Virus record (IMG/VR): IMGVR_UViG_3300035542_000215
Length of the DNA: 64,000 nt
Source: a virus
Strand: one strand, 5' to 3'
The notes beneath the pieces are model-generated. The model was given only the letters and a program-made list of their open reading frames with translations, did no database searches and was not told the DNA's origin. Positions 1 to 55,762 of this stretch are shown here, piece by piece. Each line of letters begins with the position of its first letter. Position 1 is the first letter of the stretch. A program made the translations under genes and the position numbers.

Positions 1-299
1 GCAAAAATGAAAAAGGTAATACCTTGAAAAAGGACAGGGTTTTAGAAAAAGATAAAAAAATGATTATAATAAATTCTTTTTTCAATGTTAATCCTTTTAA
101 CCACGGTGAAGCCTACGTTCTACTTGATCCTAAAACAAATTATACTTATAGAGTTTTAAGAAAAGATTTATATGAAAAACAGAGTCTTAAAAATTAGACT
201 CTTTTTCTTTTTTTGGAATATAAAATCTCATCCTTGCATATTATAAATTAGTTTGTTAAAAGGGAGCACTTACGTGCAGGTAAATAATAGGAGGTTTTT

Positions 300-628
300 A
301 TGGATGAAAAAAGATACTAGAAAAAGCAAAAAATACTGAATATAGACACAAACACTGGTTTAAAGAAGGTGGAAAAAGTGTTTATGAAGCTATTAAGCAT
401 TTTGTTGAATGTGGAGATTTTTACCTTGATTTTTCAAGCAGGATAAACTACGCAAGCCAAATTAAGGGATATGACGGGCTTAATAGTAGAAAGGATGTTA
501 CCGATTGGCTTATTGAAAAAAAGCGTTACAACAAGCTGATTATAAGGTATGCAGGCAAAGAAAAGGGTACTGATAGAGGAGTTTTAAAAGTTAAGACTTT
601 TCTAGCCTTAAAAAACGCCCTTAAATAA
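300..628 (+). pseudogene. Hypothetical protein with a 1-nt frameshift in an A-run (probable sequence error)
   Basis: Promoter 215, leader and SD AGGAGG precede ATG 300. One extra A in the A6 run at 307-312 opens a ~109-codon frame ending at TAA 626-628. Confidence 0.55.
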
Positions 629-655
629 TATCAGAAAAACATAGGAGGAATTATT

Positions 656-1252
656 GTGGCAGTAAAAAGATATTATTTGGATCTTGAATACAGCAAGACT
701 CCAAAAAAGGTATATGAAACATATATCGTTGCTTTTGGATTAACTGATGACGGAGAAGGATTACAAATCGGTCAAATATTAAAACCCTGGAGAAATTTTA
801 AAAAGAAAAATGTTCCAAAGTATTGCTCTATAACCGGGATAGAAAGAATCGAAGTTGAAAAGGCCCCTCTTCTTGAAGACATATATGATGAAATATTTGG
901 AAGAATGCAGAAAAAACAGCATGTGGTATATGCTTGGGGAACTGATGGTGATAAGTTTAAAGGTGTTGCAAAACAAAAAAATATAAATTGCAATCTTTTG
1001 TTTGAAGATTTTCAAAGAAGGCTTAAAAGAGAGTTTGGTCTTTTATATCAGCCTTCTCTTAAAAAAACTATGGAACTTATTCAAAAAAGACACGGTTTTA
1101 GAAATCATAATCCCCTTCATGATGCAATTATGCTTAAAAGAATTCATGATAAGTATATAAGAGATAAAGAAGGTTTGAGGTATTTAATGAGAAGAAGAGA
1201 TTATGAAATTCAGCTTAAAAACTTAAATAAGGAATATAAAGATGTGATTTAG
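656..1252 (+). CDS. DEDDh 3'-5' exonuclease (KapD/DnaQ-like)
   Basis: ExoI LDLEY, ExoII WGTDG and ExoIII HNPLHDA motifs; SD AGGAGG before the GTG start. Confidence 0.75.
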   Translation: MAVKRYYLDLEYSKTPKKVYETYIVAFGLTDDGEGLQIGQILKPWRNFKKKNVPKYCSITGIERIEVEKAPLLEDIYDEIFGRMQKKQHVVYAWGTDGDKFKGVAKQKNINCNLLFEDFQRRLKREFGLLYQPSLKKTMELIQKRHGFRNHNPLHDAIMLKRIHDKYIRDKEGLRYLMRRRDYEIQLKNLNKEYKDVI

Positions 1253-1401
1253 TACATTTCCCCCACTTGCTGGGGGTTTTTTGTATGGATATAGCAATAC
1301 ATTGAATATACTATGTATTTACAATGCCTATCTTTTATAGTATAATATATTATAACATACAGTTGATAGATATTTAGAATGTTTTTGAAAGGAGAGTTAA
1401 A

Positions 1402-1674
1402 ATGTCTGGAAAAAATATAAGTTTTAGGATTGATGAAGATTTAAAAGAAGAAGGCGAAAAGCTTTTTAAAGAATTAGGTATGAATATGACTACTGCTTTA
1501 ACTATTTTTATTAAACAGTCCGTAAGAGAGAGAAAAATTCCATTTCAAATAAACTTAGGTGTCCCAAGCATAGAAACTTTAGAGGCTATTGTTGAAGCTG
1601 AAAAAATGTTAAAGGATCCTAATACAAAAAAATATAAAAATGTTAAAGAATTGCTAGAAGAGTTGGATAGCTAA
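1402..1674 (+). CDS. dinJ: RelB/DinJ-family antitoxin
   Basis: NISFRIDEDLKEEGEKLFKELGMNMTTALTIFIKQSVRERKIPF is the RelB/DinJ pattern; overlaps the toxin start. Confidence 0.9.
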   Translation: MSGKNISFRIDEDLKEEGEKLFKELGMNMTTALTIFIKQSVRERKIPFQINLGVPSIETLEAIVEAEKMLKDPNTKKYKNVKELLEELDS

Positions 1675-1952
1675 TGAAGTATGATATTGCTAGAACTTCA
1701 AAATTTAAAAAAGATTTCAAATTGTCCCAAAAAAGAGGTTTAGATATAGAAAAATTAACAGAAGTAATTGAAATGCTTGCAGATGGAAAAACTTTACCTG
1801 AAAAATATAATGACCATCCATTAAAAGGTTATTTCAAAGACTACAGGGAATGTCATATTGAGCCTGATTGGCTGCTTATGTATAAAATCTCTCAGGATAC
1901 TTTAATCTTAACGCTTGTTAGGACTGGCACACACAGCGACTTGTTTGAGTGA
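1674..1952 (+). CDS. yafQ: YafQ-family mRNA interferase toxin
   Basis: FKKDFK...DHPLKG...RECHIEPDWLLMY...RTGTHSDLF. Confidence 0.92.
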   Translation: MKYDIARTSKFKKDFKLSQKRGLDIEKLTEVIEMLADGKTLPEKYNDHPLKGYFKDYRECHIEPDWLLMYKISQDTLILTLVRTGTHSDLFE

Positions 1953-1955
1953 GAC

Positions 1956-1988
1956 TGAAACTCCTACCACTTAAGTAGTGGGCTTTCC
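1956..1988 (-). mobile_element. Possible IS200/IS605-type single-hairpin remnant; may double as the TA terminator
   Basis: Minus strand AAGCCCACTACTTAAGTGGTAGGAGTTTCA resembles IS605-family subterminal hairpins. Confidence 0.35.
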
Positions 1989-2053
1989 ACTTTTTTTGTA
2001 AACTATCCTTAATATTGTTTCAAAATAAAGAAGACCTCATTTGAGGTCTTCTT

Positions 2054-2890: not shown

Positions 2891-3484
2891 TTTTTCCTCC
2901 TATTTTTACCTTTTTTTTATTATATGCATTAGCACTGGGATTTATTCCATCAAAATAGCCCCACTAATTAAAGTAGGGCTTAAGAATGGAAAATAAAAAA
3001 AACGAAAAAACTATAACAATTATATTATATGCATTAGCAACTTAAAATATTCCACCTTAACATCAAGTGTTTTAGGACTAATAGATCTGTTGTAAGGCTA
3101 AGATTTCTAATAGTGTTGTTTGTGACATCATTGAATATTATTTATAATCAAGTTGAGGTTACTGCGGTAGGACTGTATTAAAAATAAATTTCTCCGTATT
3201 ATAGTCTGTGACTAGTTTAAGTTGATTATTTTTTATAATACACTTTTGCCTCTATTTTCTAAAATAAATGCTTTTTGATAATGTCGATTTCAACATCTTT
3301 GATTTTCCGTTCTTAATACAACAACAGATCCTTCCTGCATGAAAAAATCTTTTTTAGAAAAACAAAAAAAGCGACTTTCATCGCTTTCTTAGACTTGAAT
3401 TTCAAAAATTTCTTTGTCTCGATCCATTCTAGTCAATCCTATGTAGGCTAGTCCATATTTTTTTCTAGTGTACTTATTTACTTT

Positions 3485-4711: not shown

Positions 4712-4837
4712 CTTTTTCCTCCTATTATTTTGTGTTTTTTAAAAACTCCTTATTTTCTCTAAATTATTATATGCATGACTACATTTTTATATTCCTTTTA
4801 AGAAAAAAAGAAACAGCCGAAGCTGCTTCTTTATAAT

Positions 4838-5814: not shown

Positions 5815-5823
5815 TTCTTCCTC

Positions 5824-6624
5824 CTATAATAATTCATATTTTTTTCTTACATCACCTATTTCACCACATGTCATATTCCCTTCTGGACAATGACCATTTA
5901 AACATCTTGGTCCGGCATTTTTAAATAATATTGGGGCAACTTCTTTTACCTGCTCAAGCATTTTTTCAGCCATCTGCCTTATTTCCCACTGTGCTCTATT
6001 ACAACATCTTAAATTAAAAAAGTGTAGTAATGTTCTGGCATTCATAGTAACCATTATTTTAGTTTCACAAGCATTAGGAAGAACATATCTTGCATCTTCT
6101 ATTGCTTTTTTCTCTGCCTTTTCTTTATCTTTTTTAATTTTTTTTTCTTTCTCAAATTTAGAAATATATTTACCAAAATCTTCGCTGTACTTTGGAAGAT
6201 ATTTTTTATAAAGCATATCTGCTAATTTATCGTAGGCTTCTTGTGCTTTTACCATCTGCTCTATATATATTTTCTTTGCTTCATAGTCGCCATTAAGCAC
6301 TGGTGGTACAATATAGTCAAATTGACCTTCTTTTACATATCTTTGAGACCTTTGAGAATAACTGGCTATTCTATGTCTTACAAGTTGATGAGTCAGCACC
6401 CTGCTTACTCCTTCAATTGAAAAACTAAAAGATATGTGCTCAAGTGGTGATTCATGTCCTAAATTTGTTAATTTTTCTATAAATCTCTCTGTTTTTTCTT
6501 TATCAAGTCCATCCATTAGATCTTTTCCTGATAGATCAGAATAACACAGCTTTGCAGCTGCTGAAACCAGTTTTTCAGGTTCTGGAGTGTAACTTAATAA
6601 TTTTACATCTAATTTTGTATGCAT
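5824..6624 (-). CDS. thyX: FAD-dependent thymidylate synthase
   Basis: ThyX signature [14 protein letters not shown], plus GHESPLEH and [11 protein letters not shown]. Confidence 0.97.
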
Positions 6625-6742
6625 TTTTTTCCTCCAATATTTTTTTTGCGTCTAAACGCTCCTTTTCTTTTATTATTTATTATATGCAGCTATTATCTTT
6701 TATATTCCATAAAAAAAAGCAGCTAAGCTGCCTTTTTTTGGG

Positions 6743-7336
6743 TTATTCGTAAAAAACATGGTCTCCAATAGTTTTGCTGTAAGTAAGTGAATTTTCCATC
6801 CATAGTAAAGCTGATGAGTCTGCAATTTTTGGATTTACAAAATACAAAGAATCGCTTTTAAGTTCTTCATCCTTACTTTCTGTGTAAACAGTTAAAATTG
6901 CTAATTCTATTTCATCTAAATACCCATCTTTAATTACGGTATCCTTTATTTTGTTAGATGGTGAAAACTGTTTTGGTTGGTAAACAACATCGTGTATATT
7001 GTTTGGAAAATTTTCACTTTCGACTCTATTAAGTATTACCCTTACCACTTCCTTTTTTCCTTCTAACGGCTCACCCTTTGCTTCAAGATAGACTATTTTT
7101 TTTAATATTTCATAGTCTTTTGTTGCTTTGAAAAAATCATATCCATCTACAGTTACAAAATTGTTTTTTACAATCCTTTCTTCTCTTACTTTTGAGGGCT
7201 CTTCTTCTACCGTTTTTGATTCAACAACGGTAAAAGATTTAGAAGAAATCAGTACAACAATCATAACTATCATCAAAATTGCTGCTAAAGTGATTACGGC
7301 TTTTTCTGTTTGTTGTCCTATTTCTTTCATTCGCAT
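6743..7336 (-). CDS. Membrane-anchored cell wall hydrolase (SleB/CwlJ, Hydrolase_2 family)
   Basis: N-terminal TM segment; IVYLEAKGEPLEGKKEVVRVILNRV, VVYQPKQFS, SLYFVNP and IGDHVFY motifs. Confidence 0.88.
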   Translation of the reverse strand: MRMKEIGQQTEKAVITLAAILMIVMIVVLISSKSFTVVESKTVEEEPSKVREERIVKNNFVTVDGYDFFKATKDYEILKKIVYLEAKGEPLEGKKEVVRVILNRVESENFPNNIHDVVYQPKQFSPSNKIKDTVIKDGYLDEIELAILTVYTESKDEELKSDSLYFVNPKIADSSALLWMENSLTYSKTIGDHVFYE

Positions 7337-7439
7337 ATAATCCTCCTTGTTTTAAAGTGACTCATACACTCCTTTATTTTATGAATTATTATATGCATGA
7401 AGTTAATTTTATATTCCTTATATTGAATAAAATTAATTT

Positions 7440-7533
7440 TTGACGTTTTTTAGTTAAAATGATAGAATTAAGTACGGAACAAAAACAAATATGTTTTTAG
7501 CGAAAAGGTGCCTGCACTTTTTCGTATTTTTTT
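7440..7533 (+). ncRNA. Candidate ~60-nt small RNA with its own sigmaA promoter and terminator
   Basis: TTGACG(7440)-17-TAGAAT(7463); terminator GCGAAAAGGTG-CCTG-CACTTTTTCGT plus T-run at 7500-7533; no ORF. Confidence 0.5.
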
Positions 7534-10685: not shown

Positions 10686-10932
10686 TTGTATCCTCCTATT
10701 TTTTTGTGTTAAAAAACAACACTCCTTTAACTAAGTAGTTTATTATATGCAAAAGTTAAAGCTTATATTCCTAAAATTTCTTTTAAAAAAGACAATATTT
10801 TGGAGTAATTTCATGGCTTTTAGCAGCATCTTTGCTACGTCGTTTTCGGGTTGATAGTATTTTTGAAATGATAAGGTAGGATTTGACATTATCGATTCTA
10901 TAAAAAATCTCATCATAGAAAAATGTATTAAA

Positions 10933-12397: not shown

Positions 12398-12552
12398 TTA
12401 TTAAACCTCCTTTCTCCTATTATTTTTTGTGTTTAAAAACACTCCTTATATTTACTAAGTTATTATATGCAGTTGAATATTTTTATATTCCAAAATCACA
12501 ACAAAAAGAAATAAGACTGAAAATTTTCAGTCTTTTTTCTCTTTTTAACATG

Positions 12553-13375: not shown

Positions 13376-13485
13376 TTTTACCTCCTATGTTTTTTGCGTA
13401 TTAGACGCTCCTTTTATTTGATAGTGTATTATATGCAACTATTAAACTTTATATTCCTTTTTCATAAAAAAATAGAGGTTTCCCT

Positions 13486-14766: not shown

Positions 14767-16583
14767 TTATTGTAAATAACAAATATCTCCATTAGGTGCT
14801 TCTATCATAACTGCCTTTTCATCCTGATTTAAAACTTTATACAGTTCACTGAGTTTTGATCCGTTTTCTTCTTCTGTTTCTATTCGAAGATACTCATCAA
14901 ATATCCTCACCTTGCAATTTACTTCCCAACAGTCTCTTCCTTCTCCGCCGCAGAGAGTATTTTTATTTTTGATTGCTTCAAATAAATCTTTGCTGCGAGA
15001 TCCTTTTTCTAGAATGTTGTTTTTCAAATATTCATGTGAAAAATATTGTAAGTCATCATCTACTCCAGAAGTTTTAAAATTTAACCAATAGTTATAAAGT
15101 GTATGAAGTGTATTTTTTTCATCTAACAATGCATCTATCATTTCTTCTTCCCAGATATTCCCGTCTTGAACTAAACAGTCAATTTCATTTTTCCACCCTA
15201 GTTCATAAATTCTTTCGCTTAATCCTTTTTTATCTAGTTTAGATGCTTCTTCTAGTAACTTGTTCCATTCTTTTGATACTTTCTCCTGCAATTGTTCTAA
15301 TTTTTCATCCATGTTTTATCTCCTTTTATTTATATAATTTATCAATTATATCCATGTTATGAAATTTAGATAGATATTTATCAACTTTTTCATCTGAGCA
15401 TTCATCATCTCTTATCATTTCATACAAAGTGTTAAGAGAATTCGGTCTTTTTAGTAAAAAATCTATAACATTTTCTTCTTGTATGCTTACATTTTGAAAA
15501 TGACAATAAATTAGGTCTATCCATCCGATAAAATGAGCATTAATCTTCAATCTTTCAGCATTTAAGCCTGATAAATTTTCAAACAAGCTGTTTCTCTCAT
15601 TTTTCATTTTCTCTCTTAATATTCTCATTTTTTCTTTTCTTCTTTCAACTGGCATATATTTATCCTCCTATTAATTAAGCTACTAATCTTTCGCTTAAAA
15701 ATTCTGATGTAAAATATTCTAAATCACTATCTACACCGGAAGTTTCAAATTTCAACCAATAGTCATAAAGAGTGTGGAGTGCATTTTTACTATCTAGTAA
15801 AACTTTTATCATTTCTTCATCCCAGATAGCACCGTTTTGTACCAAACAATCCATTTCAGCTTTCCAACCAATTTCATAGGATTTTTCTCCAAGTCCTTCT
15901 TTGTCTAACTTAACCATTTCTTCTAAAAATTCGTTAAATTCTTTTGATATTTTTTTTTGTAATTTTTCCAATTTTTTTTCTTCCATTTTTTCCTCCTATT
16001 GTTTTTTTGCAACAAAAGTTGCTCCTTTATATTAACTAATGTATTATATGCAATCCTATATTTTTATATTCCTTTTTAACAAAAAAAAGAAACAGCCGAA
16101 GCTGCTTCTCATGTATTAAATATTTCCTAACATATCTTCTAATTCAGTTATTTTCGATTTTGTGTATTCTATTTCCTTTTTTAATGAGTTAATTCTATTT
16201 TCCTGTTTATTATCTTCTTCTAAACACTGAATTATGCTATGAAGTTTCTTTTTAGTACTGTTTTTCCCCATTATTTTACTTAATTCTTCATATATGTAGT
16301 TTAAAGTATTTTCTTCGCTACTTAAAGATTTAGCAAATTCTGGATGAAATTTCGACTTGTTTTCTTCATTAAATACTCTTGCTGCATATTGAACTATTTC
16401 TGTTTTCATATGAAGTTCATAAGCATTTTCTCTTAATTTTAATCCTTCTTCTTTAAGACTTCCTATGTAGTTCTTGTATTCTTCTTCAATTTTTTCATTT
16501 AAATTTTCAAATACATTTTCGCCTTTTATTTCTTCCATTGTTTCATTCATTGTATTTTTCATTTTTATCTCCTTTTCTAACAT
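14767..16583 (-). CDS. Tandem DUF3848-like paralogs (14767-15312, 15326-15655, 15675-15986, 16116-16583)
   Basis: 14767 and 15675 share MdEKkLE.LQ.K.SKE.N..LEE..KLDK.GL.E..YE.GWK.E.DCLVQ.G.IWdEEMI..LLD.KN.LHTLY.YWL.F.TSGVD.DL. The others are more distant. Family name from recall. Confidence 0.55.
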
Positions 16584-17773: not shown

Positions 17774-18797
17774 TTAATTTTTTTTAAGATGTGTCTCGAA
17801 ATTTTTTGCTGTTTTTTCATCAAGTAAATAATCAGGTATCTTTTTATATTCTTTTGTTAATGAGTTTAAAAAATCTTCAACTTCTTTTTTGCTTACACTT
17901 GATTTTTTTAAATTAAAAATTTGTTTGAGACAGTCACTATCTACTTCTTCTATTTCCACTCCTTGTCCCTTCAATTTACCTAACTTGCTTCTTACTTTAA
18001 TTTTTATGTTTTTTTCTTCTTTCATCTTTTCCTCCCATATTGCTTAATGTATTATTATATGCATTCTAAAGCTTAATTATTCCTATTAAAAAAACTCTAC
18101 CCTATATTAATAAGGTAGAGAATTTTCTAAGCATTATCTAAATGACAAGGTTTTGCTTCTAAATACTTGGTCATAAGATTTTCTGTTATATCTTCATTTT
18201 CCTTCCAATTTTTTTCAGATATGTCGTGTTTAAACTTGTATAGTTCTTTTGCAAGTCCTTTTTTAATCATTAATAATTCCCAAAGATGCGGATGAGTATG
18301 CCTTAACATTTCAATATTATTTCCATCATGCTTGATGTTCATAGCACATGTGAAACAACCGGTTCTTGTATATGTAATATATTCTTCTTTTCCCGTTTTT
18401 TCATCCTTTTTCCAGTACCCAATATCATATAGTGGACTGGTAGGAACATTGTTTCTTTTAATATATTTCCAGATATCATCTTCAGAAAAATGTATAAGAG
18501 GCAGTGCTTTATGCCTTCCTTCCCCTTTTACGTAGTATATTTCCCCGTATCTTTTATAAAGCTCATTTCTTTTGACATTAGTTTTATAGTTTCTATCTCA
18601 TATTCGTTAAATTTCTCCGGCTTTATTATGTTAACGCCTTCTTTTAAAGATAGAGACTGTTTTCCGTGAACATTTTTATAGTTGCTTATTTTTATCTGCT
18701 TTAAAATTAAATTTTTCTCCTTGTTTTCACTTGTAAAGCTTAACTGTTTACAGCCCATAGCTCCTCCTTTATTACTTTGCGTATTCACGCTCCTCAT
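17774..18797 (-). CDS. Small hypothetical genes (17774-18025, 18127-18342, 18528-18797)
   Basis: Downstream of promoters 18054 and 18809. Confidence 0.55.
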
Positions 18798-19113
18798 TTT
18801 CTTAAATTATTATATGCAAATTAAAAGTTTTATATTCTGGAAAATAAAGGTTGGTGGTGATATTAGCTTAATAATGTCGATATCAACTTCTTTAAAAAAG
18901 CATTATACCCAGGGGAGGGTTATATTTATTACCCTCAAGAGGGTAAGTTTTCTACCCCTCATCTTGCTAATTTTTTAAATTTGGGTATTTTGATAATGTC
19001 AATAGCAACACTATTGATTGGTTAAAAATTTTTTGATATGTAAAGCAGGGGTTTACATATATGTAAAGTTTGGCCTATCTCATAAAAAAAACAGACCTTT
19101 CGGCCTGTTTAAC

Positions 19114-20064: not shown

Positions 20065-20455
20065 ACAATACCTCCAATTATTTACTAAGGTATTATATGC
20101 ATTCGCCTGTTAAATTATTCCAATAAAAAAAAGAATGCTTTTATCAGCTAAATTCTTAAAAACATTAAAAGTACTGTTTCTAGTAACGTTAATAGACATG
20201 TTTAAATTTCTTTATCCCCCCAGTCCTCTTTCTTGACTATTTTTAATCGAATTATATTTAAAGGATTTTTTAGTCGGACGATTATCTTTTTCGACCACTT
20301 TTTTAACTGTTTGCGTTCTACTATAAGACGAAAACTTCTTTTTTGCGTCCTTTCGTCCATTTTTAATATTCAGGAATATAAAAAGTATTAAATGCATATT
20401 ATAGTTTTAGAAAATATAAAGGAGTGCATTCGCACAATAATAAAAGGAGGAAATA

Positions 20456-22290: not shown

Positions 22291-22373
22291 TAAATTAGAA
22301 GCAAAACAATATTTTAAGGAATATAAAAAAGCACTAGGCATATAATAATAAAAAAATAAAAAAGGAGAAAACA

Positions 22374-22682: not shown

Positions 22683-22824
22683 CAACTGTACCATGTTAAT
22701 TAAGATGCTAGTAATTTAGCATCTTTTTTTTGTTTTTTTTGGAATATAAAAACATTAAGATGCATATTATATTTTATATTGTTCAAAGGAGCATTTTGAT
22801 GCAAATAAAAAAATAGGAGGAGAC

Positions 22825-23649: not shown

Positions 23650-23714
23650 GATTATCTTTTTTTTTGGAATATTAATATTTCTTAATGCATATAATACTTT
23701 ATCAAATATAAGGA

Positions 23715-24884: not shown

Positions 24885-25013
24885 AAACAAGAAATAAGAT
24901 AGTGTGCGAATACACGCTATCTTTTTTTTTGGAATATAAAAAAACATAGATGCATATAATAAATTAGAAAAAATACAAAGGAGTGACTATTCACATTAAT
25001 AAAAGGAGGATAT

Positions 25014-26820: not shown

Positions 26821-26941
26821 TATTTTCTCATCAATTTTATTTTATAGGATTTTTTTGGAATATAAAAACATCAAAGTGCATATGATAGTTTAGAAAAATT
26901 AAAGGAGTGCAAATGCACAATAATAAAAAAGGAGAAAACAT

Positions 26942-29471: not shown

Positions 29472-30118
29472 TAATGTGAAAATATATATTAATTAATGGA
29501 ATATAAAAAACTACTTTTGCATATAATACTTTAGAAAATATAAAGGAGTATTAATTTACAAAAAAAATAAGGAGGAAATAAATGAAAGAATTAATAATTG
29601 TAGATGTAAGCAGGGTTAAAGTTGGAGAAGATATTTATGCATACAAGTTAACTTTGTTTGATGAAGATGAAGGAGAAACATTTACTGCAAGTATTGCAGA
29701 GGGAATTTTAGAAAAATAAAAAAAAGGAGATAGAAAAATGATAAAAAAGAAAAAAATGATGAAAATTTTGGACCAGATGATGTGTTTGAAATTGAAGATG
29801 ACGATGAGATCCCATTCTAGAAAAAATACTTGAAAAGATAGGTATAATGCCTATCTTTTTTTTGGAATATAATTTTTAAGATTTGCATATAATAATTAAA
29901 CGAACAAAGGATTGTTAAAAACAAAAAAAAGAAAGGAGAAAATATGAAAATATCAATGTCAAGGTTTAAGCATAAACCAAAAGAAATGGAATGCTGTAAT
30001 GAATGCAAAGATAAAGTATGTAATATCAGCCCAGTTAAGTGTATTGATTTTTTTATAGCAAATAAAAAAGTTTTAGATGAAATACGGAGTGAGTTAGATG
30101 AAAAAAATTGATTACAAT

Positions 30119-30400
30119 GTCAATAACCCCCTCCTAAATGCTAACGCATTTTGAGGAGGGAGCTTGTTACAAGAAAGCTCATATTGACTAGACTAAGCAT
30201 TTAATTGCTACGTTATAATAGCTATCACACCTTCAGATGATACCCTAGTCTGATGCACTGTGTAGGCACTGTAAACAATCCCGTGAGGTAGGGATAGTCA
30301 ACCTAGATTCTGACCTGAAAAGGCAAACTATTATAACATTGTCGAAGGGTAACTACTAGTTAGTATTCTAGAGCAGTGTAAATCGCTGCTGTAAAAATAC
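30119..30400 (+). ncRNA. omegaRNA (HEARO-type) of IscB
   Basis: Structured noncoding region upstream of iscB with typical segments (TTGACTAGACTAAG, CTACGTT, CCTAGTCTG, ACATTGTCGAAGGG); 3' boundary approximate. Confidence 0.8.
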
Positions 30401-30419
30401 AAAAATAAAAAAAGGAGTC

Positions 30420-32021: not shown

Positions 32022-33286
32022 ATGAATATTGAAAAAGCTAAAATATTGATAAAAATTTCTAATTGTATTAATAAAGAGGATTTGAAACAGTTATTTAATA
32101 AAACTGAAGTATATGATCGTATTAATGTTTTGAAAAGTTTTATTAATGAAGGGTATGGCAATTCAAAAGAAAACAAAAAAGAATTAGAGATATATAGAGC
32201 ATTAATAGAAAAAGTTAAATAGATAGTTTTTCTACTATATGTGAATGTATCCAAGCGTTTGGATTAACAAAGGAGATTTAATATGGATAAAAAAATAGGT
32301 TTTAAATATAATTTACTAGAACTTGTAAAACAAGCACTTAAGTTGTATCTAGATAAGTATTTTACTTATAAAATAAAAGATACTTCTAGTTTATCAGCAA
32401 TGTATGAAGTTACAAAAATTATAAATGATGATGAACTTCAAAATATTTTAGAAGAATGGTCAAAACAAAATAATGATAAAACTACTTTGTTTGATGATTT
32501 AAATAAAGACTGTAAAAAAATATGGGAAATTATTAGGACAAAAAATGTTTACAAAAATCTTTTATATAAATACCAAAAAAGTGGTGAAAGTGGAACAGGT
32601 ATTTTTGATGAAACTACTAATAAATTTCATAAGTGCGATATGGGAGAACATTATATAACTATAGGAGAAATTTTAAAAGAAAATCACTTTGAACTTTTAA
32701 AAGAATATAAGAATCACAGAAACAATCCAAATTATAATACCAAAAAGTTAGATAGCTTTATTGAAAACAAATTAAAGTTTGTTCTTTCAAAAGAATTTAA
32801 TTTTTAAAGACTGATTTTTCAGTCTTTTTTTATGGAATATAATTTTTTAGTTTTGCATATAATATCTTATCAAGAATAAGGAGCACTTTGTGCAAAAAAA
32901 ATAAGGAGGATTAAATGGAAAGAATTAAAAAAAATATAACTTTAGAACAACTTTTTAAAATTGATGTAGACCAAGCAGTTTATTTATTTGAAAAGCTAGG
33001 TTCTTTAAATCAAAAAAATAGACCTCATACTGCTTTTAGAGAATTTTTTGAAGAAAAATATAAGCCAGTATTTGGAGTAGATATTGTGAAAATAAATATA
33101 CCTTTTTTAATTGAACTCTTAGGTGAAAAATTAACAACTACTACTAGGTATAAAAAATCTGGAAAATGGAATATCGGATTTGAACTAGATAGTTATACTA
33201 CTGGTATAACTGGAGATGAATTGATTGACGTTTTATGGAAGGGTGTTGTACTTTTCGTATTGCCAAAAGAAAAAGAGGAGAAATAA
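32022..33286 (+). CDS. Hypothetical genes 32022-32222, 32283-32807, 32915-33286
   Basis: SD-led ORFs; 32915 follows promoter 32834. Confidence 0.65.
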
Positions 33287-34077: not shown

Positions 34078-34204
34078 ATTTAAGGTATTAGATGTTAAAG
34101 TCTAATGCCTTTTTTATTTTTTGGAATATAAAACTATGAAATTGCATATTATAATTTAGAAAATATAAAGGAGTGATTAGTCACATTAATGAATAGGAGG
34201 TAAA

Positions 34205-35706: not shown

Positions 35707-35812
35707 TTTTGAAGTATATGTAAAGAAGATTGCAGAAATGCAGTCTTTTTTTTGTGTTTATGGAATATAAAATTAAGCAAATGCATATAATAGCTTTAGA
35801 AAATATAAAGGA

Positions 35813-37053: not shown

Positions 37054-37170
37054 AAAACTTAAAAAGAGGCAAGGCCTCTTTTTTTTTGGAATATAAAAGC
37101 TTTTAGGTGCATATAATAACTCAAGAAATAAAGGAGTGCCTTATGCACAAAATACAAATAGGAGGATACT

Positions 37171-40007: not shown

Positions 40008-40403
40008 AACAGAAAAAACACATAGAGATTCCTAAAGAAATGCTAGAAGAATTAGACCAAGTTTTTTTATAATAGTTTTCACTGTAAACAACATCCTAAG
40101 GAAGTTATTAAAATAATCAAACAAGAAGAATCTTTATCTAAAAAAGATAAGGTAAATGTATAATGGTCTCTTGCTTATAGCTTGTGACCAGCAAAGGTTT
40201 AGCCACTGCACCAGAAAGCAGTGGTTTTTTGTTTTTTTGACAAGTTTTATATTTGTGATGAAAGGATGCTGTATGTTTCACCCAAAAATGTGACTATTAA
40301 CATCTTCGACATTTCATTGGAAGTACTTTGCTTCATATGGAATATTTTCTGCTGTAAATGCATATTATAAGTTAAGAGATAAAAAAAGAGAAAGGAGCTT
40401 TTT

Positions 40404-42492: not shown

Positions 42493-42787
42493 TTTTACCT
42501 CCTGTTTTATTTTGTATTTTTTTATACTCCTTATTGTTTGTTTCCTTATAATATGCAAAATGGAGTTTTTATATTCCTTTTTCAAAAAATCTTTTTTGGC
42601 AAAAACGTCTGTATCCTATATTAAAACATAATTTCAGCGATTTTTTTTACATAGAAATATGCAACGGTTGCATATATTGCTTTTTTGTAATATTTTGTCT
42701 TATGATTTGGTTTCATTTCTACATGTTTTTGATAAGTTAATCTTACCATTTTAAAAATTCTTGTCAAAATATTAGATTTTTGACAAA

Positions 42788-43084
42788 ATGAGAGATGAAA
42801 GGATAGTGAAAATAGTGGAAAAAGTAAAAGTAATGGCAGCTTTTTATCATAATAGGAAAAATAATAGATTAAAAAAAGACGGAAAAACTGGAGAAGTTAT
42901 TCCTCTTAAAATTAAATATAAAAACAAAACTGTTAATGTTATTATGTCTAATCGGTATTATGAAAAAGAAAATAAAGAGAAAATTATTGTTTTTCGTTGT
43001 TTTTATAAAGAAAGAGGTTTTTTTTATAAACTCTATTTTTACACTGAATCTCTTGATTGGTTTATAGCTTTTGAACAGAATTAA
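42788..43084 (+). CDS. Small hypothetical protein resembling clostridial Y-family-polymerase accessory proteins
   Basis: V.VMAAF...GEVIPLKIKY...IVFRC...YKLYF....DW; resemblance from recall only. Confidence 0.35.
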   Translation: MRDERIVKIVEKVKVMAAFYHNRKNNRLKKDGKTGEVIPLKIKYKNKTVNVIMSNRYYEKENKEKIIVFRCFYKERGFFYKLYFYTESLDWFIAFEQN

Positions 43085-43156
43085 TTGATTAGCAATATTG
43101 ACGTACTTGTTTGAGTACGATACAATAGAGTTATAAATAAATAGGAGGGATGTAAG

Positions 43157-46397: not shown

Positions 46398-46742
46398 TGG
46401 TGGAGCTGGTGGGATTTGAACCCACGTCCAAAAATATTTCCACAGGACTTTCTACGAACATAGTTCTCTTTATTCTTTAACTACATATATCAAAGAAAAC
46501 AAATCTATATGCAGCTATCTCAAGTTCTTTTGTATAGGGTCTGAGAGTCTCTAATACAGTTTTTTCGCAGTTAATGATACTCAATGTTGACAAGCGAAAA
46601 ATATCAACGTGAGCAGTCGTTTTTGAAGCGACAGTTTGTTTTTATACTATGCGTTTAGTTTAGTTTGTTAGTTTTTATGTTGACTAACTCAACAATTCGC
46701 TTATCCTGTTTTTATATCCTCGTCGAAACCATTTTCAACCCC
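46398..46742 (-). ncRNA. ssrA: tmRNA (345 nt) with a one-codon tag ORF
   Basis: 5' GGGGUUG pairs with CAGCUCC-ACCA including the G3-U alanine wobble; GGUUUCGAC near the 5' end; T-arm GUGGG-UUCAAAU-CCCAC; pk1 GUUGA/UCAAC plus GUUAG/CUAAC; UAAAC then GCA UAG at 46652-46647. Confidence 0.92.
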
Positions 46743-46923
46743 AATTTATTTCTTTTAAATCCTCATCTTTTCATAATCATACTCTCCTTTTTTTTATTTA
46801 CACATAAGTGCTCCTTAAACATCTAATCTATTATATGCAAATATTACTTTTTATATTCGTTTTTTGAAAATAAAAAAAACACCCCTTTGAAAAAAATCAA
46901 AAAGGTGTTTAAAAATTTGATTA

Positions 46924-48580
46924 TTAATATAATTTTTTGAAAACTATATAACCTTCGAAATATGAATCTTCTATTACTTCGAATCCTTTTTCTGCATAAA
47001 AACTTAAGTTTTCTTCTTCTACATATATCATTACTCCACCAATATCGTTACTCATAAATGCTGTATCTACAATTGAGTTCAAGTTTTCTACTATAGCTTT
47101 TTTTATTATCCTACCATCATACTCTTCATTTATTTCAATGTCTTCTAAAACATATATGCTTTCCATATCATCAACAAGATCAAAATCTTCATCTATAATA
47201 ATACTAGCTATAACTTCTTTGAACCCGGATTCTGCATCCATTTCAAATAGAAATTTAGTTAAATTGCGAATTAGACATTTAGGTGCAATTTTATAACCCG
47301 TCATACCCCCAATGGTTTCATTTTCTTCACCTTTCATAACATCAATTACAAAATTAAAATCTAAGCTATGATCTGATCTTTGTTCCTCTGGAGTCTCATA
47401 TACTCCATCTTCTTCTCCAAATATCATTATTGGATTATTAGCTACTGGGCTAATTAAAAATCCATCCATTTCTTTTTTTCATATTATTTATCTCCTTTGT
47501 TTTTTTACAGCTTCAAAACTGCTCCTTATTTTGAACTAATTTATTATATACATCTCACTAGATTCATATTCCTACTTTTTATTTTTTGTCGATATACTCA
47601 ATTATTTTATAGAGATATGTAGTTTTCCTTATTTTATAAAAAGCTAATCTTATAATATCTTTTTGTGTTTTCAATCCTATTTTCATATCTATTTCTCTTT
47701 CAGCATTTTCATCTAAGGCTTCTTTTATTACTTCTTTTTCTTTACTATTCCATTTTTCAAGCTTTTTTCCTTCCATTTCGTTTTTCAATAATTGGGATAA
47801 GTTTAAAAATTTTTTTATTGTCATTTTCGACCAATTTTTTTTTAAATGCCATTTTTGATCTAAACAAATCATATATGCCGATAACCATACCAGGGCTGTT
47901 TTTTCAGAATTGTTTTGTGTTTTTTTTAAAAGTTTCATAGTATGCAGCATGCCAGGTTTTATATTTCTACTTAACCCATGACATACACATGCTTCATGAT
48001 ACAATGTTTTTTTTTCTTCGAAAATTAATTCTTTGTATTCTTGTATATATTCTTTTTTCCACCAGTCAAAATCTTTAACATTATAATAAGAGTTTTTGTT
48101 TTCAATTTCAATTGTTTCTATTTCTGTTTTAAAATTTTCTCCAAATTCTTCTTTCCACATTTCATAAATATCTTTCCAATTTAAATTATTTTCTTGCATT
48201 TTTTTCTCCTTTTATTTTTATAATGCTTCTCACAAAGCACTTGTAAATGTCCTTTGTTTCTTAATTTTCCTTTTTCTCCACATATTTCACAGGTTTTTCT
48301 ACTTAAAGCAGCATATTTACCTGTTATTTCTTCAATTTTTTTCATTTAAACAATTTGTGTAGATATTAAGCACTCCGTATTTTTCTTTAACTTGAAAGAT
48401 GTATAAGTCTTTTTTCTCTTTTTTGCTTAACACCTTTTCTATTTCTTTAGCCCAACCATAAATTAATTTAGACCATCCATCTCCACATTCTACAAATAAT
48501 CCATTATTTGCCTTAATAAACCATGGAAAATCTTTTTTTATTTTTTTCTCTATTTTTTTATCCATATCTACCCTCTTCAA
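46924..48580 (-). CDS. Hypothetical genes 46924-47469, 47579-48199 and 48332-48580 (the last frameshifted in a homopolymer)
   Basis: SD-led ORFs; 48332 continues in another frame as ...CEICGEKG...LCEKH. Confidence 0.6.
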
Positions 48581-49195: not shown

Positions 49196-50460
49196 TTATG
49201 ACCTTATGGTGTTTATGATTTCTACAACTCTAATTTTTAAAAGTATTACTGCCAAAACTTCAAATAGCATTATGTTAAGGGCTGTTATAAGAGCTTTTTT
49301 ATCTTCAAGAATTAATCCTGAAATTATCAAAATCATGCTTATTACTGCTCCAATGAACAATATCCAGTGTATAGTAGCCATGCTTCCTAAACTTTCTATA
49401 TTTTCTAAATTCATAACTATTTTCTCCTTTTTTTTATTATATGCATTTGACTGTTAAATTATTCCAATCAAATAAAAAAAGAAGATCTCTAAGATCTTCT
49501 AATTTTGTTTATATCTTATTTTCTCTTTTTTCATGTTTTTCTACGTAGTATTTAAATATTTTTTTTAAGCTTTTTATTAAATCAGGTAAGTTTTTAGGTT
49601 TATCTTCAAAGCTTTTTTCATCAAAAGTACCTACAAAACCATTGGGACAGTAAGAATAAGCAGTGTTAAACCATGTATTCTTGCCTACGGTTCTAGTTGA
49701 TATGTAAGCAGCATCTTCACCTAACAGTAGAGTAGCGAATATGTTCTTGCTATCAACAAATTTTGATTCGTCCCATTTTTTATCGAAAGCCTTAATTATG
49801 TCTTTGTGAATATGGACTTCCAACTTTAAACCTTCGCATTTCATTTTACCTGATATTAATATTTTTTTACTTTTGTCTAGTCCTTTGATATCTTCCTTGT
49901 CAACTGGTCCTAAAATAAAATTGTCACAAAATTTTATATTGAATTCATCCTCTAAATAAAACTTTCCCTCTTTTTTTCTAACTAAACCTTCCAAATTTGC
50001 AACTTTTTTTACAGACATGAATTTTCCTGTTAGCAATCCTTGAGAAAATTTAAAATAATTCTCTCTTTTTTCTGTTATATTAAACTTGCTGGCTGCATTT
50101 TTGTAGGTAGGAGCACTTTTAATTTTTTGTTCAGAAGCTATTATTTCTTTTAACGCTGCTTTGTAAACGTCTTTATACTCCTTCATGAATCTCTTCCTCT
50201 TCTACAACTGCATATGCATGGACCATACCTTCTTCGTCTAGCTTAATTAACATGTCATTATCCATTTTCTTATATAGTCTGCCTAGAAGTTTTAAAGTAT
50301 TGCTTACAGATGAGTTAATGACTATATCGTCTATGTATTCACCAAAACATAGGTCTTGTTTAATATAATCTTTTTCAATCACTTCTATTGCTGCTTCTAT
50401 CTGTTTAGTTTTTACAATTTCGTCTCCATTTGAATATACTAATATTTTTTCTTTATTCAT
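49196..50460 (-). CDS. Small membrane protein 49196-49414 and hypothetical genes 49509-50186, 50173-50460
   Basis: Downstream of promoters 49436 and 50519. Confidence 0.65.
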
Positions 50461-50843
50461 TTTTTCCTCCTATTTTTTTCATTGAACAAATATTTGCTCT
50501 CCTAATTTTTCATAGTTTATTCTATGCATTTTAGGTTGTTTATATTCCTTAACGACAAAATTTGGCAAATTAGAATTTTTTTTATTTTTTTGGAATATAT
50601 TAATTAAAAAGTGCATATAATAGAACATCACAATAAAGGAGTGTTCTTGCACTGCTAAAAATACAGGAGGAAGATAATGCTAAAAAAAAATAGTTTTAAC
50701 AATTGAGGTACCAGATGAATTTGATCAATATGATGAGGCTGAACTAGATTTAAGAATTTCAGAAACAGTTTCAGAATTTGACTATGAATTAATTAATTCT
50801 GACGAATATATCGAAGTATAAAAATAAAAAAAGGAGATTAGAC

Positions 50844-51449
50844 ATGAAGACAGGACAGAAGTTTAAATTAAAAAATAAGGAACTAGAAGGAATCCATTTG
50901 TACAGTTATCAGGATAAAGTATTCTTTTTATCCAAAAACAGGGTTTATGAAACATCAAAATCCAATATTAAAGAAATTTTAGAAGAAGTTGTAGATCCCA
51001 CAACTCTTAAGTACCCACTAATGCCAACCCAGGAACAGGTAATAAATAGCGAACCAAAAGAACTAATAAATATTGCTTTAGCTAATTTTAAACATTCTAC
51101 CTTGGAAGATGCTTTAGGAGAGGATATTTATTTAAAAGTAAAAAAAGTTGGAAGGCTGGTAAAGGGAAATGTTTACAGTCATGAAACAAAAAGAGTGTAC
51201 CCCATTATAAGTTTAGAAGTCGAAGCTGATTTAAAATATAGTTTTCAAGATAAAGCAGTTAAAACAGTTGGACTACTTCCACTATATTCACTTTTAAACA
51301 ACGTTGTGAATCCAACATATTTTCTATGTGAGCTTAACAAATTCAATGAGGAAAAATTTAAAAATGGATGTGGAGACTATGTTAAGGTGACTAGTGTTTG
51401 CGGAGATTATTCTAACTTAAAAATTGACTTTGAAAAATATAGTATATAA
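50844..51449 (+). CDS. Hypothetical protein
   Basis: SD AAGGAG; second gene after promoter 50592. Confidence 0.7.
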   Translation: MKTGQKFKLKNKELEGIHLYSYQDKVFFLSKNRVYETSKSNIKEILEEVVDPTTLKYPLMPTQEQVINSEPKELINIALANFKHSTLEDALGEDIYLKVKKVGRLVKGNVYSHETKRVYPIISLEVEADLKYSFQDKAVKTVGLLPLYSLLNNVVNPTYFLCELNKFNEEKFKNGCGDYVKVTSVCGDYSNLKIDFEKYSI

Positions 51450-52311: not shown

Positions 52312-52504
52312 ACTCTACTCCTTTTTTTCTTTTTTTAGTCCTAAAGTTAACAACTTTTCCTAATTTTTTATGTGAATAAAATCACTCCTTATTTAACATA
52401 TAATATTATATGCATTATTATTTTTTTATATTCCCAAACATCTAAATATTTTAAAATACTCAAATAAGTGGTAAGATATATAAAAGCTGTTTAAAGGAGA
52501 GCTC

Positions 52505-52897: not shown

Positions 52898-53020
52898 TAT
52901 AAAAAGATCCACCAATAACTGGCAGATCTTAATTTATTTTTATTTATTTTTTTTTGTTAACGACTTTAATTTGTTAACGACTTTATTTCCCGTTTTCATC
53001 AAAAATTTATATTTTAAAGC

Positions 53021-55372
53021 CTATCTGATAGGGCAAACTCCTGATTCACACGATTCGTTTCCTATGTCAAGTTCTGTTTCAACTTTTTCATATTTTCCAA
53101 GTAGGGAAGGTATAAAAGGCTTCATTTCAGAAGACATTTTTTCATACTTTTCTTTAGAAATTGATTCGTATGGCAGCAACTCATAAAAATTATCATCTAG
53201 TGATAAAAATGAAAGTGCTACAACATCATTCCAATTATCCCATACCCACTGTTCAACTTTATCCCACTCATCATCTCTTACATGAACTGTAATTGAGCAG
53301 TTATGGTCTACATAATTTTCCATAAACATTTTATAATTTTCAAGTTGTTCTATAGCTGAAACATCATATTTTGTTTTCCCTTCAGGTGATTTTACTGGGA
53401 ATTCAATTACTTTCGTAGTACAAGTTTTTTCGTCCTGTCCAACTTCAGAAAATATATTATATTCTAACTCTTCACAAACTTTTACTAATGGATCGTTAGC
53501 ATTTATTCTAACCCTTCTTATATAGTAAGGCGAATGTGAATAATGTACGCCACTAGATACTGTTGGAAGTTGAGATAATGTTCCCTCAGGTTTTACTGTC
53601 GTTACTAGTATAGGCGTTTTTTCTCCTAATGATTTAGCATATTTTTCAGCTTCCTCATTAGCAGCTATTTTTAATTTTTTAAGTATTTTTGCCTGTTCTT
53701 TTTTGTCAAGATTACAAGCATTTACCATGTCTTGCCATCCAGTTAAAGAACAACCAGTTAATTTATCTCTTTGCTGTACAGCATTCCATTCAGGAATTTC
53801 AAGTTCAACGCAAGTCATTCTGTATGCTGCTCTGACTGATAATTTTTGTGCTTGTTCTAAACCTTCTAGGTCAAGAGTACCGTCTTTTTTAACAAAAGAG
53901 TGTACGTTTATTGTAGTTAAGTTGCACAAACCATTAGAATCAAGTAATATTTCACCACAAGGATTTACCCCGTTCATATTATCTCTTCTTTTCTTACCGG
54001 CCTCTTCATTTACCCAACCAGGTTCACCGGAGTATCTCATTTGTTCTATTTGCCAATGAAGCTGCTCTCTTGTTGGCTTTTCTTTATAATAGATAGAATT
54101 GTTACTCATTTGTCTATGTATAATGTCCTTATCTACTTTCCATTGCTCGTCAATTTTTTTATAAAGATTATTTTTTGCACCGATTGCTTCTTCATCATCA
54201 GCGTCTACAAGGGCAATTTCTGCCGTTCTTCTAACTCCGCCAACTACAACATTTTCACCAATTATGTTTGCTACATCTAAGCAATCTATTGGTTTAAGTT
54301 TTACCTTGTCACTATCAGAAATGCTTCCTCTCTTTTTTAAGACTTTATCAATTTTTAAAAACATATTTTTAATGCTTTCGTGACCACTTGCAGTTCCTCC
54401 AAATGTTTTAAGAGGCTCTCCTTTAGGCCTAACATTATCATAATTGATTCTTATAGTTTTTACATTTCTATATTCATTACTGTGTAGGAGTTCAAAGAAA
54501 TAACCGATTGACTGAACCCAACCTTCTTTACTATCTCCAACTCTTAATCTTGCAGTTGTATTATTTGAGAAAGTTAAAGAAGTATTATCTTCTCTTTTTT
54601 CTTTTTCTACGGGAGTATAATCTTCATGTATTACTTCAAATTGACTTCTGATTTTTGGTAATTTTTTTACATCATCTTTTAAAATTCTTATTCCAACTCC
54701 AGATCCTACCATCAACAGGTAAAATAGATCTCTAAATGCTTTAAACCTATCAACTACTGTAAAAGCACAATTGTAATTTGCCATAGGATAGTTTTTAGCA
54801 ACTGGTGTTCCTCCTACCCAAAATGTTCTTCCTGATAGAAATTGTCTCAAGTTAAAAATATTATCGTAAAGAGTTTCTGCTTCAGCTTTTGTTGTGGGAA
54901 CTAGATTGCAGTTATATTCAACTGCTCTTTTTACCGTTTCCCACCAGTATTCTCTTCTTTTTTCTTCGGGCAACCATCTTGAATAAGTTCTGTAATATAC
55001 AAAACTACCAAGCTGCTTCATTGGAGGTTGCTTATGTTTATATCTAGAAAGAAATTCATCAGTTAACAAAGAGCTTTCTTTTTTAGCTTTTCTGGTAGGT
55101 CTTGACTTATCTCTTTCATATCTGTAAACAATATATCTTTTAGCAACATCTTTTCTTACACTTTCCATAAGCTGGTCTTCTACCATATCTTGGATTTCAT
55201 CAACGGAAATATCATAAGGTGTTTCTTTGATTTTTTCTTCAATTTTACCAGCTATATCTTCAGCTATTTCAATATCCAAGCCTTCTTTTGTTTCATTCAT
55301 GGCATTAGATATCGCTTTTACAATTTTCTCTTTTTTAAATTCTACTTTTTCTCCACTTCTTTTTACAATCAT
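53021..55372 (-). CDS. nrdJ: Class II (adenosylcobalamin-dependent) ribonucleotide reductase with N-terminal ATP cone
   Basis: ATP cone VKRSGEKVEFKKEKIVKAI; NPCGEILL; TTVKPEGTLS; C-terminal CESGVCPIR; no NrdB partner nearby. Confidence 0.93.
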   Translation of the reverse strand: MIVKRSGEKVEFKKEKIVKAISNAMNETKEGLDIEIAEDIAGKIEEKIKETPYDISVDEIQDMVEDQLMESVRKDVAKRYIVYRYERDKSRPTRKAKKESSLLTDEFLSRYKHKQPPMKQLGSFVYYRTYSRWLPEEKRREYWWETVKRAVEYNCNLVPTTKAEAETLYDNIFNLRQFLSGRTFWVGGTPVAKNYPMANYNCAFTVVDRFKAFRDLFYLLMVGSGVGIRILKDDVKKLPKIRSQFEVIHEDYTPVEKEKREDNTSLTFSNNTTARLRVGDSKEGWVQSIGYFFELLHSNEYRNVKTIRINYDNVRPKGEPLKTFGGTASGHESIKNMFLKIDKVLKKRGSISDSDKVKLKPIDCLDVANIIGENVVVGGVRRTAEIALVDADDEEAIGAKNNLYKKIDEQWKVDKDIIHRQMSNNSIYYKEKPTREQLHWQIEQMRYSGEPGWVNEEAGKKRRDNMNGVNPCGEILLDSNGLCNLTTINVHSFVKKDGTLDLEGLEQAQKLSVRAAYRMTCVELEIPEWNAVQQRDKLTGCSLTGWQDMVNACNLDKKEQAKILKKLKIAANEEAEKYAKSLGEKTPILVTTVKPEGTLSQLPTVSSGVHYSHSPYYIRRVRINANDPLVKVCEELEYNIFSEVGQDEKTCTTKVIEFPVKSPEGKTKYDVSAIEQLENYKMFMENYVDHNCSITVHVRDDEWDKVEQWVWDNWNDVVALSFLSLDDNFYELLPYESISKEKYEKMSSEMKPFIPSLLGKYEKVETELDIGNESCESGVCPIR

Positions 55373-55386
55373 TTTTTATCTCCTTT

Positions 55387-55608
55387 TTAGTTTAGCTTAT
55401 CTTCTTCTGTTATTTCCCAAATATATATTTCTTTTTCAGGATGCTTTTCTCTCATTATTTTAAATGCTTTATTTCTAGCTTCAACTGTATCTTTAGCTTT
55501 TACAACTCCCTGGTCCACACTAATATTTTTTCCCCAGTCTTTAGATACATCAGCTGCAAATTCATATTCGTTAAGTTTTTCTTTTATTTGTGTAAAGCAT
55601 CTTCCCAT
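55387..55608 (-). CDS. Hypothetical protein leading the nrdJ operon
   Basis: First gene after promoter 55666 and its leader. Confidence 0.7.
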   Translation of the reverse strand: MGRCFTQIKEKLNEYEFAADVSKDWGKNISVDQGVVKAKDTVEARNKAFKIMREKHPEKEIYIWEITEEDKLN

Positions 55609-55762
55609 TTTTTCCTCCTTTATGTTTTTAGCGTAAAATAACGCTCCTTTATTTACCTCAAAACTATACTATGCATTTATGTGCTTTTATATTCCATGTT
55701 TTTCAAAAAAAAGCATAAAAAAAAGAAAGCCTTGTAAATTTTCAAAGACTTTCTTTATTTTT

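Follow-up and report, generated by a model that had tools for sequence, protein, structure and literature searches.

Which form of RNA polymerase reads the short, nearly uniform sequence that heads almost every gene cassette on a stretch of DNA from the IMG/VR virus record IMGVR_UViG_3300035542_000215? The whole 64-kb stretch is called the window below, and all site coordinates follow its numbering. A preliminary description of this DNA had claimed a set of 35 promoters with a signature like that of sporulation sigma factors. For the core of the motif, GGAATA-N14/15-GCATA, dinucleotide shuffles predict 0.05 exact matches, and the window has 32. Scanning the window with a position weight matrix (PWM), as that description had proposed, added three variants with one mismatch each (18838-, 46859- and 47572-) and brought the total to 35 sites, including the single site with a gap of 14 nt (22318+). 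PWM scores were 25–39 bits for 34 of the 35 sites and 16 bits for the remaining one. No score elsewhere in the window exceeded 8 bits, and shuffled sequences yielded 0–1 matches. As no intermediate scores occur, the 35 sites form a discrete class rather than one end of a continuum. The size of the set was as first claimed, and so were two further features, namely the back-to-back pairs (20121-/20373+ and 50548-/50592+) and the absence of the motif from the par/rep region (no site from 55696 to 64000) and from the two toxin-antitoxin (TA) modules.

The full motif is about 31 bases long, GGAATAWWWWW-N9-TGCATAWAATA, and so exceeds the core first described. In the alignment, a T-rich tract is followed by GGAATATAAAA, in which GGAATA is extended by T-A-A-A-A, then by 9 variable bases and by T-G-C-A-T-A-T-(A/T)-A-T-A, which is nearly invariant. 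T-16, G-15, C-14, and A-13 do not vary, the last two across all 32 sites with an exact core (the 47572- variant reads GTATA). TATAAT or TATTAT is present at 31 of those 32. Neither block is palindromic. Spacer bases and leader stems vary from site to site while both blocks do not, which shows selection and not recent duplication to be at work. A separate observation is that the -35 block GGAATATAAAA and the -10 block TGCATATAATA, whose starts lie 20 bp apart, are identical in 8 of 11 positions, as seen at all 35 sites. This likeness amounts to an imperfect direct repeat and could be due to chance in AT-rich DNA.

The placement of the sites is as regular as their sequence. All 35 are co-oriented with the gene 3' of them, and at 31 of the 35 an open reading frame (ORF) preceded by a Shine-Dalgarno (SD) sequence follows, with its start codon a median of 53 nt past the -10 block. 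The 58 nt 5' of the sites fold with a median of -11.5 kcal/mol, compared with -4.5 for random stretches of the window, and end in T-runs in the manner of terminators. About 28 sites are followed by a long standard leader (~45 nt) and six or seven by a short one. The long leader consists, in order, of AAGGAG, a 5' hairpin, an A-run, and the true ribosome-binding site. Its AAGGAG starts 13–17 nt past the -10 block and the real SD comes ~25 nt later. The hairpin begins at the last G of AAGGAG, and 23 of the hairpins have a stem sequence of their own at -2 kcal/mol or lower. At these ~28 sites the sequence matches what defines a STAB-SD, an SD-like element near the predicted mRNA 5' end that does not start translation. 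Non-coding RNA also belongs to the set, since the tmRNA gene of the element (46398-46742, minus strand; Rfam RF00023, 138.7 bits) lies ~85 nt 3' of a site with leader. These data bear on whether the repeats are recombination or cassette-boundary sites instead of promoters. They do mark the boundaries of cassettes, and their near-identity recalls the targets of site-specific recombination, but their orientation is always that of the downstream gene, their distance to the start codon is fixed, they contain a perfect -10 hexamer and come after terminators, and the sites on other elements are co-oriented too. A recombination role is thus highly improbable, and we infer that the sites are promoters.

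The sequence of the motif supports a sporulation-sigma-like and specifically a sigmaE-like character. By eye and by consensus patterns, the sites were compared with published promoters of Bacillus subtilis and Clostridioides difficile. The pattern used for sigmaE was KMATAWW-N13-15-CATAYAHT, reportedly the consensus in Haldenwang's 1995 review, with 15 specified positions and with C or T allowed at the fifth -10 position. All 15 positions are satisfied at 25 of the 35 sites, as compared to none elsewhere in the window and 0.4 in shuffles. The -35 block GGAATATA agrees with KMATAWW (GGAATAT/A at 35/35 sites), and the -10 block GCATATAAT agrees with CATAYAHT, the motif being GCATA-T-(A/T)-A-T; sites with T at -9 miss the strict sigmaE -10 pattern. 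In 34 of the 35 sites the block starts are 20 nt apart and the gap from ATA to CATA is 16. The sigmaE logo of B. subtilis consists of an 8-nt -35 block, a gap of 12 ± 1, and a 10-nt -10 block, with an optimum of 20 from start to start (PMC517825). In C. difficile, sigmaE and sigmaK promoters have a common -10 element and differ in the -35 element, ATA vs AC (PMC3789822). The ATA-to-CATA gaps of seven mapped C. difficile sigmaE promoters, counted by eye, are 15–18 (PMC3789822, Table S7), and among the mapped promoters GGAATA occurs in those of cwlD and CD2445 and GCATATAAT in that of CD2833 (PMC3789822). None of the 35 sites fits the sigmaK pattern (-35 AC, 16–17 nt, CATAnnnTA), of which the -10 part is present and the AC absent, the sigmaF/sigmaG patterns (GYATR-N15-GGnRAnAHTR or GHATR-N17-18-CATnHTA), or the sigmaH pattern. 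Promoters of the sigma54, sigmaD, sigmaB, extracytoplasmic function (ECF), and TcdR types were dropped because the spacing or the sequence of their consensuses does not agree. The preliminary description had spoken of a sigmaE/sigmaG class; its sigmaE half stands, given the full consensus at 25 of 35 sites and the 20-nt spacing, and its sigmaG half does not (0/35).

The fit to the vegetative sigmaA is poor on the -35 side, where the best match to TTGACA at a spacing of 16–18 nt is 2/6 at 35/35 sites; the TG of the motif lies one base too far 5' for an extended -10 (TGn) element. Because both blocks and their spacing fit sigmaE and the -35 block misfits sigmaA, we tentatively take as the most likely mechanism, well short of certainty, that RNA polymerase with a sigma factor supplied in trans and of sigmaE/sigmaK-like DNA specificity reads all sites. 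Promoters of the sigmaA type are found on the same DNA at the two TA modules (Table 1) and at both parA genes, which have TTGAC-type promoters with a 17-nt spacer. TTGACN promoters had earlier been claimed for par, rep, and yefM-yoeB, and those of par and yefM hold up with 17-nt spacers; that of rep is less clear than those of the par and TA genes. A consensus scan of the par/rep region gave 51 sigmaA-like sites against 47 by chance, and what speaks for the par and TA promoters is where they lie and how good they are rather than their number. A 30-kb element that is co-resident in the same sample (L083) has a TTGACT-17-TATCAT promoter. The canonical TTGAC-N17 promoters at relB, yefM, and both parA genes therefore make the sigmaA of the host look ordinary. 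Sequence comparison supports the 35 sites as one co-regulated class apart from the par/TA promoters, less clearly so from rep. It is also conceivable that sigmaA alone reads the sites as strong constitutive promoters, the flanking bases being operators of a global repressor (cf. IncP kor) or simply a fixed standard part. The TATAAT is perfect, the A/T-rich tract 5' could serve as an UP element, and replication, partition, and repressor genes on other elements that carry the motif must work during growth. We nevertheless consider this improbable, since the sites lack both a usable -35 and a TGn where an extended -10 would need one, other genes on the same DNA have canonical TTGAC promoters, the blocks are non-palindromic, unlike most operators, and some fifty such promoters, strong and constitutive, would tax the host heavily.

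The window contains genes for ParA/ParB, a DnaD-like Rep, the start of a Rep3 gene, two TA pairs, a class II ribonucleotide reductase, an NAD-ligase, ThyX, a SleB/CwlJ-type hydrolase, YopX, and DUF3848 proteins, together with an IscB element with its HEARO RNA and a tmRNA. Identical DNA is present in metagenomes from oil fields, the subsurface, aquatic habitats, and wastewater, on JGI and Logan contigs of up to 101–110 kb. About 90 kb of the ~100–110-kb element was seen. Extension past the two ends added ~26 kb of flank, in which ~14 more copies of the motif lie, making ~50 on the whole element; among the genes that follow the flank copies are those of a hibernation factor, NT5C, guanylate kinase, PcfJ, and an HD protein. 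The element is treated as a plasmid because the ~90 kb seen contains no gene for a capsid, tail, or terminase. Neither plasmids nor phages gave a relative when the window was run against them by megablast. The hibernation factor (HPF) is 50% identical to Sedimentibacter/Tissierellia proteins, the ligase ~50% identical to Bacillaceae ligases and 37% to that of phage c-st, and Rep3 37% identical to Clostridium plasmid initiators. The host is likely an uncultured member of the Bacillota.

The motif is not confined to this plasmid. A strict 22-base version had no match in 185,579 species genomes or in IMG/VR, and a literature search found no paper that mentions this motif or the sample identifiers. 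A relaxed version gave one match in IMG/VR, in a coding region of a phage of 40% GC, which was taken as chance. In metagenomes, a scan turned up this promoter together with its leader on contigs without nucleotide similarity to the window. The contigs represent at least five unrelated mobile elements, and the large plasmid was not seen in their samples. On a ~23-kb plasmid the motif stands 5' of a Rep_O initiator with a primase-helicase and of a ParA-like operon. On small elements it stands 5' of HTH-Peptidase_S24 (cI-like) repressors, and another element has six copies. Sites on these other elements likewise lie 5' of co-oriented genes. Matches outside such elements, on twelve further contigs (L004, L006-L009, L012, L014, L022, L023, L025, L027, L028) were taken as chance because no gene or leader follows them. 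The ~23-kb plasmid also has, at L078/L079:4300-5100, three tandem promoters ~200–390 nt apart followed by a 41-aa ORF and Rep_O; two of these units are duplicates of ~196 bp. A 103-kb relative (L082, an ENA contig; ligase 67% identical) is without the motif and has promoters of the TTGACTATAG type, with TTGACTATAG as a repeated -35 region; it retains the AAGG-hairpin leader on some genes.

A search of the element for sigma70-family genes had been proposed along with the earlier claims. No Sigma70 domain was found in ~105 window ORFs, the flank ORFs scanned, or the other motif-bearing contigs, a search covering ~90 kb of the element. An element-encoded sigmaE-like factor could lie in the remaining 10–20 kb, as in phages such as SPO1, since the contig measures 101–110 kb and a uniform promoter used element-wide is characteristic of phages that bring a sigma or a polymerase of their own. 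Phages of spore-formers do carry sporulation-like sigmas, but these are mostly of the sigmaF/G type (PMC9429907), which the motif misfits. The ~23-kb plasmid and several small elements, moreover, share the promoter, show no sigma gene, and come from samples without the large plasmid. With none in the ORFs scanned from the ~90 kb, we regard this option as doubtful and rank it below reading by sigmaA alone. The absence of a sigma gene from the ORFs scanned and the sharing of the motif by at least five elements favor a reader encoded by the host. The reader is probably host-encoded and perhaps not limited to sporulation.

Two proteins of the element are of interest as possible partners of the polymerase. 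The first, of 162 aa, is a stand-alone RNA polymerase alpha C-terminal domain protein (alpha-CTD; Table 1) and is encoded in a five-gene operon that is itself under a regulon promoter; it is a candidate accessory transcription factor. Three small domains encoded in the same operon are paralogous to one another (107 aa, 103 aa, and, in a 189-aa protein, the N-terminus). The second is encoded by a gene of 124+715 aa (L046:4536-7103, minus strand), ~9–11 kb past the right end of the window and with a non-regulon region 5' of it. Every copy seen has an in-frame TGA, at the glycine of a helix-hairpin-helix (HhH) 'PGVG'. The protein has no Pfam match of its own; distant full-length homologues of the 715-aa part (E 1e-98 to 1e-14) have RNA_pol_A_CTD or HHH_5, or Sigma70_r4, and several have both. 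Pfam scans found no sigma region 2 in these homologues. The 124+715 protein is not a sigma factor, although it could bind -35-like DNA. In the 103-kb relative, sigma region 4 is present in a 216-aa protein that also has an HhH motif, the latter identified by eye. Such proteins would suit a mechanism in which sigmaA reads the TATAAT and a separate protein bound at GGAATATAAAA replaces the -35 contact, as with T4 MotA/AsiA or phi29 p4. The combination of a perfect TATAAT with a -35 hexamer of 2/6, the alpha-CTD protein (E 1.5e-18) in a regulon operon, the domains of the 715-aa homologues (alpha-CTD-like/HHH_5 and/or Sigma70_r4), and the 216-aa protein all speak for this mechanism. However, the invariant T-16, G-15, C-14, and A-13 are superfluous for a sigmaA -10, neither candidate has a homologue in the examined DNA of the other motif-bearing elements, and the 124+715 gene is broken by the TGA in every copy and lacks a Pfam match. 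We hold it to be unlikely, while placing it first among the alternatives to a sigmaE-like reader.

Under the preferred reading, a sigma of sigmaE/sigmaK-like specificity acting on all sites would be supplied in trans, most probably from the chromosome of the host. Genes for accessory functions, nucleotide metabolism, and RNAs would nearly all switch on jointly, while the partition and TA genes, and probably the replication genes, would stay on ordinary sigmaA promoters. Three points weigh against it. Part of the fit may be compositional in view of the AT-richness of the sigmaE consensus, a perfect sigmaA TATAAT lies inside the -10 block, and the replication, partition, and repressor functions found behind the motif on other elements are expected in growing cells and not only in the mother cell. 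Use of the motif by replication and repressor genes argues for a reader that is present during growth, unless the activity of these elements is tied to sporulation. The earlier proposal of joint firing under a host sporulation sigma or an element sigma is upheld in part. The sites look like a single class set apart from the par/TA promoters. The functional side of the proposal stays a hypothesis, since the ORFs scanned from ~90 kb yielded no sigma gene and the comparative context is partly against it. A broader proposal is that sigmaE-type promoters have become the standard of mobile elements in an uncultured, spore-forming lineage of Bacillota, so that the replication, nucleotide-supply, and accessory programs of these elements would fire in the sporulating mother cell; we consider it more doubtful than any of the mechanisms above except recombination. 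If mother-cell firing were true, the element could amplify and escape from a doomed cell, leaving the spore that carries it unharmed. Should the reader be host sigmaE, whole mobile elements would be wired into sporulation, beyond such isolated cases as the cry genes and the skin and SPbeta excision genes. Should it be something else, the motif would define a class of promoters not yet described, from an uncultured subsurface lineage of Firmicutes.

The individual sites are listed in Table 1, and several neighboring features were noted in passing. The promoter at 3053- has a predicted transcript of ~70–90 nt (window 2950-3053, minus strand) that ends at the hairpin before the next promoter, and this transcript is a candidate small RNA. 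At 30119-31718 (plus strand), an IscB gene encodes 432 aa with RRXRR and HNH domains and has a HEARO/omega RNA 5' of it (Rfam RF02033, 127 bits). No close relative of this IscB was found among 185,579 species genomes, the best being 44% identical, from a Planctomycetota metagenome-assembled genome. The left flank just outside the window (L034/L041) encodes a type III restriction-modification system (N6_N4_Mtase and ResIII) and a second N6 methylase, and genes on the methylase side likewise have regulon promoters 5'. All assemblies stop ~1.1 kb past the N6 methylase. They break at a divergent promoter pair (L041:16878-17151, ~10 kb left of window position 1), whose plus-strand copy is followed by a GC-richer, structured-looking RNA that contains GUGCG and has no Rfam match; it may represent a group II intron at its 5' end.

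Table 1. Predicted promoters and the alpha-CTD gene in the window, with the genes or transcripts that follow each promoter.
Feature	Position	Strand	Downstream gene or remark
Regulon promoter	215..245	+	Leader, short ORF, then 198-aa ORF (656-1252); 32.5 bits
SigmaA-type promoter of relB-yafQ	1290..1401	+	TTTACA-17-TATAAT; read by eye
Regulon promoter, short-leader subclass	2918..2948	-	278-aa ORF (2054-2890)
Regulon promoter without leader or ORF	3023..3053	-	Short transcript up to hairpin before site 2948
Regulon promoter	4765..4795	-	202-aa ORF and DUF7007 operon
Regulon promoter	6678..6708	-	ThyX (5824-6624)
Regulon promoter	7387..7417	-	SleB/CwlJ-type cell-wall hydrolase (6743-7336)
Regulon promoter	10741..10771	-	292-aa ORF and three more ORFs
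Regulon promoter	12461..12491	-	123-aa ORF
Regulon promoter	13427..13457	-	Small ORFs
Regulon promoter	16042..16072	-	Operon including DUF3848 protein
Regulon promoter, top score	17684..17714	-	Small ORFs; 39 bits
Regulon promoter, short-leader subclass	18053..18083	-	83-aa ORF
Promoter, AGAATA variant	18808..18838	-	Standard leader; 24.8 bits
Regulon promoter, short leader	20091..20121	-	174-aa ORF; divergent from 20373+
Regulon promoter	20373..20403	+	134-aa ORF and operon
Promoter, sole site with 14-nt gap	22318..22347	+	Short leader; 102-aa ORF
Regulon promoter	22741..22771	+	146-aa ORF
Regulon promoter	23666..23696	+	Transglutaminase-like protein
Regulon promoter	24931..24961	+	Operon including HD-domain protein
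Regulon promoter	26857..26887	+	Small-ORF operon
Regulon promoter	29498..29528	+	45-aa ORF
Regulon promoter	29864..29894	+	Small ORF immediately 5' of IscB/HEARO element
Regulon promoter	32834..32864	+	Nucleotidyltransferase operon
Regulon promoter	34123..34153	+	Operon including YopX protein
Regulon promoter	35762..35792	+	136-aa ORF and operon
Regulon promoter	37088..37118	+	Six-gene operon
Regulon promoter, short leader	40339..40369	+	64-aa zinc-ribbon ORF
Alpha-CTD protein, 162 aa	40942..41430	-	PF03118, E 1.5e-18
Regulon promoter	42547..42577	-	Five-gene operon including alpha-CTD protein
SigmaA-type promoter of yefM-yoeB	43050..43156	+	TTGACG-17-TACAAT, dyad in spacer
Promoter, CGAATA variant with leader	46829..46859	-	tmRNA gene
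Promoter, weakest variant, GTATA in -10 block	47542..47572	-	Leader; 181-aa ORF; 16 bits
Regulon promoter, short leader	49435..49465	-	72-aa ORF
Regulon promoter	50518..50548	-	95- and 225-aa ORFs; divergent from 50592+
Regulon promoter	50592..50622	+	Leader, then 201-aa ORF (50844-51449)
Regulon promoter	52404..52434	-	182-aa secreted-looking ORF
Regulon promoter	55665..55695	-	73-aa ORF and class II ribonucleotide reductase (53021-55372)

Uniform promoters are familiar from phages with their own polymerase or sigma, and we know of no plasmid with some fifty units all on the same promoter and leader. Such a set amounts to a natural standard expression cassette, and the module, being short and discrete, could become an expression part for clostridia. 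Like the middle promoters of T4 (MotA box plus sigma70 -10) and the kor system of IncP, the element has a conserved box that replaces or overlaps the -35 element-wide; unlike in those systems, no MotA/AsiA or KorA/KorB homologue has been identified, and the box, which lacks palindromic symmetry, agrees with the -35 consensus of a sigma. SPO1 likewise has uniform non-sigmaA promoters at many of its transcription units, read by phage-encoded sigmas (gp28, gp33/34). A sporulation-like specificity has been proposed for SPO1 gp2.21, with sigmaK-like promoters likewise proposed (PMC9429907). The element differs from SPO1-type phages in having no sigma gene in the ORFs scanned, in its par/rep functions, and in a motif common to unrelated elements. 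With B. subtilis and C. difficile sigmaE promoters the sites share the ATA in G-K-M-ATA-W-W, the CATA-Y-A-n-T, and the 20-nt block spacing, and they have extra invariant bases (G at -26, T and G before CATA, and A after TATAAT). Natural sigmaE regulons are degenerate and chromosomal and serve spore morphogenesis, whereas here ~50 near-identical copies stand on one plasmid, with more on other mobile elements, and precede genes of nucleotide metabolism and tmRNA and, elsewhere, of replication. A close parallel for plasmid accessory genes with mother-cell-type promoters (here predicted) and strong terminators 3' is that of the plasmid-borne cry genes of Bacillus thuringiensis, which have sigmaE/sigmaK promoters. 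In cry genes, an SD-like sequence near the mRNA 5' end (STAB-SD) is held to block RNase J1, and 3' terminators act as stabilizers (PMC4113751). The leader described here opens in a similar way, with AAGGAG and a hairpin. In B. thuringiensis, however, only a few toxin genes are concerned and the STAB-SD is documented on the sigmaA-driven cry3A, whereas on this element one module heads nearly every cassette.

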